From: a bacterium
GTDB lineage: Bacteria > Bacillota_I > Bacilli_A > RFN20 > CAG-288
DNA length: 64,000 nt
NCBI GenBank assembly: GCA_963648975.1
Contig: CAVJFW010000003.1
Span: 2,921-66,920 of the forward strand
Direction: 5' to 3'
Made by a program: the position numbers and the translations under genes. The notes under the pieces are model-generated. The model did not search any database, was not told the origin of the DNA, and saw only the letters and a program-made list of their open reading frames with translations. Each line of letters opens with the position of its first letter. Position 1 is the stretch's first letter. Below are positions 38,723 to 43,383 of this stretch, one piece after another.

Positions 38723-40189
38723 ATGCAAAACAAGATTGTTATGGAAGGTATCACATTCGACGACGTGTTATTATTGCCCCGGTATTCGGAAATCACTCCG
38801 GATATGGTTACGCTCAAGTCTAGACTGACAAAACATATCACCTTGAACATTCCTCTTCTTTCCGCTGCCATGGATACGGTCACGGAAGCAGACATGGCCA
38901 TCGCCTTGGCCAGGGAAGGTGGCATAGGCATTATCCATAAGAATATGACCATTGAACGTCAGGCCAAGGAAGTTGACAAGGTAAAGAGAAGTGAGAATGG
39001 CGTCATCACCGATCCTATCACTCTTTCCCCTGACAAGACATTACAGGATGCCTTGAAGATTCTTTCTGATTACCATATTTCTGGCATTCCGATCACCGAT
39101 GAGGACAGAAAGCTCATTGGTATCATCACCAACCGCGACCTCAAGTTCGAACATAATCTGACAAAGAAGATTTCCGAAGTCATGACAAGCGAGAACCTTG
39201 TCGTCGGCAAGGTCGGAACAACGCTTGACGAGGCAAAGGAAATCCTTGCCCGTGCCAAGAAGGAAAAACTTCCTATCGTCGATGATGAATTCCATCTCTG
39301 TGGTCTTATCACCATCAAGGATATCGACAAAATCCAGCAATATCCGAATTCCGCCAAGGACAAATATGGAAGACTCCTTTGCGGCGCCGGAATTGGCATC
39401 ACCAAGGATTATCTCATTCGTGCCAAGGCTTTGATAGATGCGGGTGTCGATGTTCTTGTCCTTGACAGTGCCCACGGCGACAGCAAAAATGTCGTACTAG
39501 CCCTCAAGGAACTCAAGAAGAATTTCCCGGATACTGATGTCATCGCTGGAAACATCGCTACCTATCAGGGAGCCAAGGATCTCATGGAAGCCGGTGCGGA
39601 TGCCGTAAAGGTCGGTATGGGACCTGGTTCCATCTGTACCACGCGAGTCATCTCCGGCATGGGTGTTCCTCAAATCACTGCCATCATGGAAGCAAAGAGA
39701 GCCAGTCTCGAATATGACTGTCCGATCATCGGTGATGGCGGAATCAAATATTCCGGTGACATCACCAAGGCTCTTGCAGCCGGTGCCGACACCGTCATGA
39801 TGGGTGCAATCTTCGGAGGCTGTGAGGAAGCTCCTGGAGATACCGAAATCTTCCATGGAAGAAAATACAAGGTCTATCGTGGCATGGGTTCCCTTGCTGC
39901 AATGGAACAGGCCCACGGTTCTGCTGACAGATACTTCCAGTCAGGACATAGAAAACTTGTTCCTGAAGGTGTCGAAGGCAGAGTCCCATTCAGAGGCAAT
40001 GCAAGCGACGTCATCTTCGAACTTCTCGGCGGTATCCGTTCCGGTATGGGATATCTAGGCGTCACGACCATCAAGGATCTTCAGGATAAGAGCGAATTCG
40101 TCAAGATTACCTCCGCTTCCCTCAAGGAATCCCATCCACACGACATCGACATCACCAAGGAAGCTCCTAACTACTACACTGAAAAATAA
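38723..40189 (+). CDS. guaB: IMP dehydrogenase
   Basis: [11 protein letters not shown], a CBS pair, the catalytic loop [11 protein letters not shown], and GGIKYSGD. Confidence 0.95.
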
Positions 40190-40332
40190 GATAACTACAA
40201 AGACTGTCACGGACTGGTATGAATGTACTGGTCTTGTGACAGTTTTTTTATGGAAATTAAACAATTTGACTGAAAAGAACTTGTCATAATGTGATATGTG
40301 TAATTAAATCTGTCTTGCACATATCGAGATAC

Positions 40333-40361
40333 TTGATTTTTTTTTTTTTTTTGAGTATTCT
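40333..40361 (+). promoter_or_regulatory. candidate promoter whose -35/-10 spacer is a homopolymeric T tract
   Basis: TTGATT (40333-40338), a 17-nt spacer (14 T plus GAG), then TATTCT (40356-40361), about 30 nt upstream of the collagen-like lipoprotein ATG. The -10 is weak, so the call is tentative. Confidence 0.4.
40337..40352. repeat. T16 homopolymer
   Basis: Counted directly: 16 consecutive T residues. I noticed no longer homopolymer in the window. Confidence 0.95.
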
Positions 40362-40390
40362 TTCTTTTAAAAGAAAGGATTTTAAATCGT

Positions 40391-42523
<2,133 letters not shown>

Positions 42524-42644: not shown

Positions 42645-42679
42645 AATAAAAAAACTGCATCACCATAAGGCGATGCAGT
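42645..42679 (-). terminator. intrinsic terminator of mscL
   Basis: ACTGCATC ... GATGCAGT hairpin, followed on the minus strand by a run of seven T. Confidence 0.7.
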
Positions 42680-42690
42680 GATTTGTTTAC

Positions 42691-43383
42691 TTACTTGGAT
42701 TCTTCAGTGGATTCTTCGGATTCTTCGGCTTTCTTTGCTTCTTCCTTAGCTTTGATCTTGGCAAGCATCTGAGCTTCGAAGGCAGCTCTCTTGGCCTTGA
42801 GACCATTGAAGACCTTGACGATGGTGAAGAGTGTCATGGCGATGATGAGGAAGGAGATGATGGCATTGATGAAGGTACCCCAGTCGATGACGGCAGACAT
42901 ATTGAAGGTATAGGTGGTTCCGTGAAGAGTGTACTTGCTGAGGATGGTTGTCTTCATGTTTTCAATCAAGGTTGGAGTGGCATCGACAGTAGCCTGACCA
43001 TAGGTTGCAACAGCTTCCTTGATGGCAAGTGACTGTAAGTCAGCTGCCTTGAAGAACTGTCCTAAACCATTTGCGGCATCCATACCCTTCTGAGCATCAT
43101 TGACTGCCGGTAAGACAGTGACAAGACCCTTAAGACCACCTGGGACACCCCATGTGCAGACACTGAGAAGGATGTTGGTCAAAGCGGTGACGATGGCACC
43201 GAAGGCAGAACCCATGATGACACCGACTGCCATATCAAGGACATTACCCTTGGAAATGAACTTCTTGAAGTCGTTCCACAATGTTTCGCCGTTGGCCTTT
43301 CTCTGTTCCTTGGCCTGTTTTTTTGCTAATTTCTTAGCCTGCTTTTCTTCTTCTGTTAACTTTTTCATTTTTTTATTCTCCAA
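42691..43383 (-). CDS. mscL: large-conductance mechanosensitive channel with expanded loop and termini
   Basis: TM1 signature [20 protein letters not shown]. However, it is 230 aa long, with a Lys-rich N-terminal extension and about 95 aa between TM1 and TM2. Confidence 0.75.

Follow-up and report, generated by a model that had tools for sequence, protein, structure and literature searches.

A poly-T tract in the candidate promoter spacer of a collagen-like lipoprotein gene: a putative slippage switch in an uncultured gut commensal

Sigma-70-type promoters depend on a spacer of 17 ± 1 nt, and phase variation through promoter homopolymers is textbook material for a few pathogens. The porA and opc promoters of Neisseria meningitidis hold a repeat tract in the spacer between the -35 and -10 elements, with graded output in the case of porA, and in Helicobacter pylori sabA the tract adjoins the -35 element instead of lying in the spacer and acts together with a CT repeat in the coding region. 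The tract of the vlp genes of Mycoplasma hyorhinis is said to lie between -35 and -10, 17 residues reportedly being the ON length. The streptococcal Scl1 and Scl2 are Gly-X-Y surface proteins with a variable number of repeats, and the expression of Scl2 is controlled by slipped-strand mispairing at a pentanucleotide repeat in the coding region. Each vlp promoter carries a poly-A tract, according to the summary of Citti and Wise 1995 given in PMC10502178, which for Vmm of M. mycoides cites a 2002 study of phase variation by a simple repeat in the promoter; the sabA promoter tract is poly-T (PMC2715451). Invertible promoters with a tyrosine recombinase include the E. coli fim type, Mycoplasma Vpma/Xer1, and the invertons of gut Firmicutes and Bacteroides (PMC11868660), and BclA of Bacillus and Clostridioides is a further collagen-like surface protein (PMC13188886).

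Here we describe a run of 16 T (T16) in a window of 64 kb, i.e., the whole stretch of DNA analyzed (GCA_963648975.1, contig C3:2921-66920), which belongs to a 1.57-Mb draft genome (75 contigs, 44% G+C). The run lies in a candidate promoter ahead of a gene for a collagen-like lipoprotein. The locus resembles the vlp system in that the candidate promoter of a gene for a surface lipoprotein contains an A:T homopolymer, in coding for a protein with tandem repeats of variable number, and in belonging to the small-genome Bacilli/Mollicutes radiation. It differs in that the protein is unrelated (collagen repeats plus a beta-solenoid, with PF01391 as its only Pfam match), only one of the paralogues, of which there are at least five, has the tract, the genome encodes MutS and MutL, and the host is an uncultured gut commensal. 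With Vmm, porA, and opc it shares a simple repeat inside the -35/-10 spacer whose number of units would set both spacing and transcription, but theirs are dinucleotide or G:C tracts instead of poly-T, belong to pathogens, and have been proven experimentally. The difference from sabA is one of position, the tract being beside the -35 element there and in the spacer here. Invertons are comparable in outcome, namely stochastic expression of a surface protein, and homologues of the lipoprotein use one; the window locus, unlike them, has neither a recombinase nor flanking repeats, and its mechanism would be slippage.

A 16-nt T run in a candidate promoter

The sequence at positions 40333-40361 of the window is TTGATTTTTTTTTTTTTTTTGAGTATTCT. 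Direct reading gives 16 consecutive T at 40337-40352 on the forward strand, a candidate slippage tract and, as the initial annotation had it, the longest homopolymer of the window; the runner-up measures 8 nt. Under an i.i.d. model, about 2e-4 T16 runs are expected per 64 kb. The A/T runs of the whole genome number 1322 at a length of 6 nt, 483 at 7, 53 at 8, and 5 at 9; there are none of 10 to 12 nt, two of 13, and two of 16. The four outliers above 9 nt are the T16 of the window, a second T16 (C32:678-693), and two A13 runs (C30:1062-1074 and C36:786-798), and the empty interval below them speaks for purging of long runs as the rule, with these four retained. A mutator genome as the cause of T16 was rejected because the genome encodes MutS and MutL, and it is thus not a general mutator.

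The annotation had further placed the run between TTGATT and TATTCT with a spacer of exactly 17 nt, and this agrees with the sequence. The candidate -35 hexamer TTGATT (40333-40338, forward strand) matches the consensus at four of six positions, and T16 begins with its last two T. The candidate -10 hexamer TATTCT (40356-40361, forward strand), also with four of six matches (T1, A2, and T6 kept), ends 29 nt before the ATG. The 17-nt spacer (40339-40355) is composed of T14 followed by GAG. With 4 + 4 matches, i.e., 8/12, the site was not listed by a promoter scan with a 9/12 cutoff. When the 140 nt from the upstream terminator to the ATG (40391) were ranked by consensus, TTGATT-17-TATTCT came second, and the top-ranked site overlaps the terminator stem. 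TATTCT is the sole TAnnnT between the tract and the ribosome-binding site. Judged by these matches, the pair appears to be the best candidate promoter clear of the terminator and the only plausible one of the sigma-A type near the gene.

The lipoprotein gene has guaB upstream and mscL, which is convergent, downstream. The coding sequence of guaB ends at 40189 and is followed by an intrinsic terminator (40196-40250, forward strand) with a long hairpin and then T7 (-26.9 kcal/mol, z = -6.7), whose arms form the inverted repeat 40196-40210/40236-40250. Since this terminator is strong, the lipoprotein gene needs a promoter of its own. A two-component system is located directly upstream of guaB.

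We propose that T16 supplies 14 of the 17 spacer bases and the last two -35 bases of a sigma-A-type promoter that would drive the lipoprotein gene. A homopolymer of 16 nt would gain and lose units by slipped-strand mispairing at replication, so that spacer lengths would come to differ within a lineage: T16 would give the optimal 17 nt, T15 and T17 would give 16 and 18 nt, and the spacer would be 15 nt or shorter with tracts of up to T14 and 19 nt or longer from T18 on. The lipoprotein gene would thereby pass, heritably and reversibly, between full, reduced, and nearly silent transcription. Provided that TTGATT and TATTCT form the promoter, changes in the length of such a homopolymer are a physical inevitability and must alter the spacing; one T less or more, for a spacer of 16 or 18 nt instead of 17, usually weakens a promoter without abolishing it, and a graded dimmer is therefore likelier than an on/off switch. 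We infer the promoter identity of the hexamers, the biological origin of the differences in length described below, and their effect on expression. With a putative promoter as its basis, a spacer slippage switch is the reading of T16 that we hold to be moderately probable. The phase switch suggested in the initial annotation is supported in part: the tract lies in a candidate promoter behind a terminator, differs in length between assemblies, and has a design that recurs on contig C30, and the gene family is phase-variable in another lineage. Its on/off form appears less likely than a graded one.

The lipoprotein and an invertible promoter on its homologues

The gene downstream of the tract (40391-42523, forward strand; ATG 38 nt downstream of T16) codes for 710 aa. 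That its product is a lipoprotein with collagen-like repeats, as annotated, was borne out by a LAGC lipobox at the N-terminus, in a genome that has the genes for Lgt and LspA, and by Collagen PF01391 (E 6e-25), the only Pfam family matched. The Gly-X-Y blocks cover residues 64-99 (12 triplets) and 132-245 (38 triplets), and these repeats, combined with the lipobox as a surface-display signal, assign the protein to the collagen-like surface proteins. In an AlphaFold model (pLDDT 93.4), the C-terminal 466 aa form two beta-solenoid modules, for which the best PDB matches, all of them weak (E ~1e-3), were the SRRP adhesin of Limosilactobacillus reuteri, PL6 lyases, and phage tailspikes. Going by the model, the lipoprotein is a probable adhesin. 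The single Pfam match and the C-terminal double beta-solenoid set it outside the Vlp family, and its relatives are collagen/beta-helix proteins of gut Firmicutes. As in Scl and BclA, the Gly-X-Y triple-helix repeats of this surface protein vary in number; unlike in those proteins, the anchor is a lipobox and not LPXTG or the exosporium, and the head is a double beta-solenoid. The contrast with Scl2 extends to the repeat concerned, a homopolymer in the promoter here and a pentanucleotide in the coding region there.

The genome contains at least five paralogous lipoproteins of the collagen type, and the long tract is found at this one only. A multiple alignment of the paralogue promoters was uninformative. 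By eye, the promoter region of the paralogue on contig C57 that starts MKKKFTLLMLSALMLTGC resembles that of the window (gatatTTGACT ... GATAAT); the GATAAT ends 29 nt before the ATG, and the spacer, over-long at 20 nt, contains G6-A-G4, which includes one of only two G6 runs genome-wide.

Homologues from a large protein collection share the lipobox, a YxxYxxxGGxLSYEEWL motif, the collagen repeats, and a C-terminal domain that is 52-54% identical, and their genes sit after a tyrosine recombinase gene in their contigs. The region upstream of the homologue gene (L061:1208-1384) has 25-nt inverted repeats around a 127-nt segment that carries TTGACA-17-TACAAT, a match to the consensus at 11 of 12 positions with TG. 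For one identical protein (P0129), this segment is directed towards the gene in an ENA scaffold (L088) and away from it in a Logan contig (L089); in L061 it is directed away, as in L089. Two of the homologue contigs begin inside the inverted repeat, and a scan of metagenome contigs for the inverton flank returned 0 hits. The occurrence of both orientations for P0129 indicates that the lipoprotein gene family is phase-variable in another gut lineage. As read from these contigs, the invertible promoter is direct evidence for that lineage and no proof about T16; it shows that stochastic control of the lipoprotein family is selected for. An invertible promoter of the recombinase type is absent from the window locus, where there is no adjacent recombinase and no inverted repeats flank the promoter segment.

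Tract length among assemblies and long tracts elsewhere

The locus was found in three assemblies in all; the species is rare in the collections searched. The sister strain (GCA_963618855.1), about 98.8% identical over 7.4 kb, has T15. A Logan contig (SRR13434654_23416) shows 0 differences from the sister strain over 4,629 nt and runs on to at least 18 T, ending inside the tract, and the following Logan contig of the same sample begins only within the collagen repeats. A comparison of tract length among strains, proposed with the initial annotation, did give lengths that differ among the three assemblies (T16 in the window, T15 in the sister strain, and at least T18 in the Logan contig), but short runs turned out to differ as well. 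In the convergent intergenic region between the lipoprotein gene and mscL, three other assemblies of the species have A6 where the window has an A7 run (42648-42654), and an intergenic T7 run at 43368-43374 is one base shorter in one other assembly. Such one-base homopolymer differences between assemblies are common here, all of them intergenic, and those at ordinary A7 and T7 runs mean that one-base differences are not special to T16. The two runs include the tail of the mscL terminator and the run just before the mscL start. The break in the Logan contig and the differences in length can fit a tract of heterogeneous length, and could also be obtained from sequencing or assembly errors at a homopolymer of 15-18 nt.

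The coding region varies as well. The second collagen block (40784-41116) has 48 Gly-X-Y triplets in the sister strain and in one Logan assembly against 38 in the window, i.e., two extra 45-nt units, and both also have a GGA-to-TGA nonsense change at window position 42026, which splits the gene into 575 + 159 aa. Because the strain with T15 carries this nonsense allele, the lipoprotein gene may be decaying there. The 38 versus 48 triplets, the nonsense allele of the sister strain, and the at least five paralogues may be taken as marks of a variable surface gene. Searches for more copies of the locus were negative in each collection: scans of metagenome and genome contigs for the flanks of the tract gave 0 hits, no record matched the 710-aa protein exactly, the guaB cluster had a single member and yielded no further strains, a search with the N-terminal 140 aa for partial genes of the species gave nothing above 47% identity, and no related locus was found in genome contigs. 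The 45 genomes of the genus held no lipoprotein orthologue, only domain-level homologues with a different N-terminus and no tracts.

The A13 run at C36:786-798, together with C52:7809-8008, belongs to a secreted-protein multigene family that is present in 10 of the 45 genus genomes with up to 5 copies per genome (loci L067-L086 in other species of the genus). The N-termini of the family are near-identical (MKNKFKKSKIIVPALALITATT.ASVTGTVAWFTA, with the start MKNKFKKSKIIVPALALITATT..AWFTA), and the copies have a conserved 5' module, cacTTGCA-T(n)-gTAAAAT, with a leader that measures about 170 nt. Six of nine copies have T13 and the rest T10, T12, or T16, and several have a 7-bp hairpin directly against the run, in the manner of a terminator. 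In its organization the family is vlp-like. The C36 tract, first read as TTGCAT-15-TAGAAT, was dropped as a third case of the promoter design, since the orthologues give a spacer of only 13 nt with T13 and often have an abutting hairpin. At the tract loci Rfam found tRNAs alone, the sequence behind the C36 tract matching none of its leader RNAs, and a look-up of spx-neighbour records for this tract in the sister strain returned no record. Since the T13 of this family is mostly constant, a long poly-T run in the genus need not be a switch.

That last point, together with the variation at short runs, bears on the alternative that survives best, in which T16 has a fixed, structural place in the promoter, as an AT-rich enhancer or as a spacer made rigid by its A-tract, and the differences in its length are incidental slippage or sequencing noise of little consequence. 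Between the same assemblies, one-base differences are seen at ordinary intergenic A7 and T7 runs too, T13 keeps its length in six of nine copies across species, and T15 and T16 would both provide workable spacers (16 and 17 nt), all of which would suit a structural element. Such an element is harder to reconcile with a genome that has only four runs above 9 nt and none of 10-12, or with T15 and at least T18 in one strain background, and if the hexamers are the promoter, the spacing changes whatever the tract was selected for. We consider a purely structural role unlikely.

The spacer slippage switch gains a possible second example from contig C30, where an A13 run (C30:1062-1074), located 137 nt after a tRNA gene and ahead of the gene for a membrane GGDEF diguanylate cyclase, is part of TTGTAG-A13-TGA-TATAAT, with a spacer of 16 nt and a perfect extended -10. 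It seems to share with T16 the design TTGnnn/tract/3 nt/TAnnnT and is a candidate for a second promoter-spacer tract, under a layout criterion that was set after the data had been seen and that 0.3-0.8% of random intergenic positions satisfy. The second T16 of the genome (C32:678-693; L057:678-693) lies inside an intact gene for a 712-aa helicase of the DUF2075/Schlafen-group-3 type. Homologues that are 76-81% identical have F-C-L-E-F-K (TTT TGC TTA GAA TTT) at the tract, and the C32 copy has F-F-F-F-F (TTT four times, then TTC), in frame and with the length unchanged. This T16 was built by six substitutions, all to T, with the loss of a conserved Glu that looks like part of an ExK nuclease motif; one T more or less would put the helicase gene out of frame. 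An ORF of about 110 aa (VVLITIQRGLIMA.PKGI...) is common to the starts of C30 (218-556) and C32 (8-346); it probably belongs to a mobile element or other repeat at which the assembly breaks.

Elsewhere in the genus, A/T runs of at least 12 nt occur in 32 of the 45 genomes, often at contig ends. The promoter-spacer layout was seen in only 1 of 27 long A/T tracts sampled from other species of the genus, and a genus-wide generalization of the promoter design is accordingly unsupported. Among 28 internal long A/T tracts (loci L025-L054), TA directly follows the A run in 12; the hexamer after the A run mostly has no T at position 6 and so is not simply a -10 box. One locus of another species (L036, from positions 40-57 on) has A18, TAAAAAAAA, and then 17 G directly before TAGAAT, so that the promoter region of a prepilin-type gene (MKLKRKKGFTLVELLVVIAILAIL) contains two long homopolymers.

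Possible transcription from farther upstream and the wider meaning

The tract could also be part of the transcript. A promoter located upstream, for example, at the extended -10 TGTCATAAT (40282-40290, forward strand), would make T16 a U16 stretch within a transcribed leader of about 95 nt, where it could act through pausing, RNA stability, or translation. TGTCATAAT matches the hexamer at five of six positions and has a correctly placed TG, against only 8/12 for the promoter at the tract, but it has no usable -35. The RNA of this model would also include a palindrome that covers the ribosome-binding site, namely the inverted repeat ATTCTTTCTTTT/AAAAGAAAGGAT (40357-40380), which overlaps the -10 box and the Shine-Dalgarno-like AGAAAGGA (40373-40380, forward strand; read from the sequence). 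Its arms abut perfectly, and its 10-bp hairpin did not reach significance when compared with shuffled sequences. Masking of the ribosome-binding site by this repeat would be confined to RNAs initiated upstream of the tract, a point in favor of the model.

The only other inverted repeat in the lipoprotein promoter region is a palindrome of 33 nt, GATATGTGTAA-N11-TTGCACATATC (40293-40325), with 11-nt arms that are 91% complementary (-12.1 kcal/mol, z = -2.7). Located 8 nt upstream of the candidate -35 box and present nowhere else in the genome, it may be an operator, an activator or regulator site, or a hairpin. The 11 nt from its end to the T run mean that it does not serve T16 as a terminator stem. 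A terminator scan found no hairpin abutting T16, and the local fold reached only -3.3 kcal/mol. T16 was rejected as the U-tail of an intrinsic terminator on these grounds, and the lack of an abutting hairpin means that it is not an attenuator either, which tells against a role in the leader. Under the upstream-promoter model, moreover, the recurrence of TTGnnn/tract/TAnnnT on C30 would be a coincidence. We judge this model less probable still than a structural role. The assembly is a draft of 75 contigs, homopolymer lengths are error-prone, and many long tracts of the genus are at contig ends, but an assembly or sequencing artefact is highly improbable, as a long, uninterrupted T run recurs at this very position in two independent assemblies (as T15 and as at least T18), so that T16 is not an artefact of a single assembly, and T16 itself is internal to a 70-kb contig.

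A slippage switch in the promoter spacer thus remains our preferred reading. The mechanism is of a known type, and the T16 locus is probably a further instance of it; what it adds is an A:T tract in reduced-genome gut Bacilli, a small set of outlier tracts, and two types of switch on one family. Only tentatively do we suggest a joint reading of these findings, in which the genome would possess a private A:T contingency set, made up of T16 in the collagen-lipoprotein promoter, A13 in the promoter of the GGDEF cyclase, the T16 in the frame of the defence-type DUF2075 helicase, and a vlp-like secreted family with poly-T modules, and in which one lipoprotein family would be subject to slippage here and to promoter inversion elsewhere.

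To our knowledge, uncultured gut commensals have furnished little documentation so far of phase variation through homopolymers in promoters. Tracts of this kind would also account for contig breaks and "strain differences" in metagenome assemblies. If our reading is true, a lineage of gut Bacilli with a reduced genome varies a probable adhesin stochastically, and the different switch in the other lineage points to a strong, general selection for variable display of the lipoprotein, possible sources of which are host immunity, phage receptors, and attachment in the niche. Two unrelated switches on one lipoprotein family would then represent convergent selection for bet-hedging in commensals.
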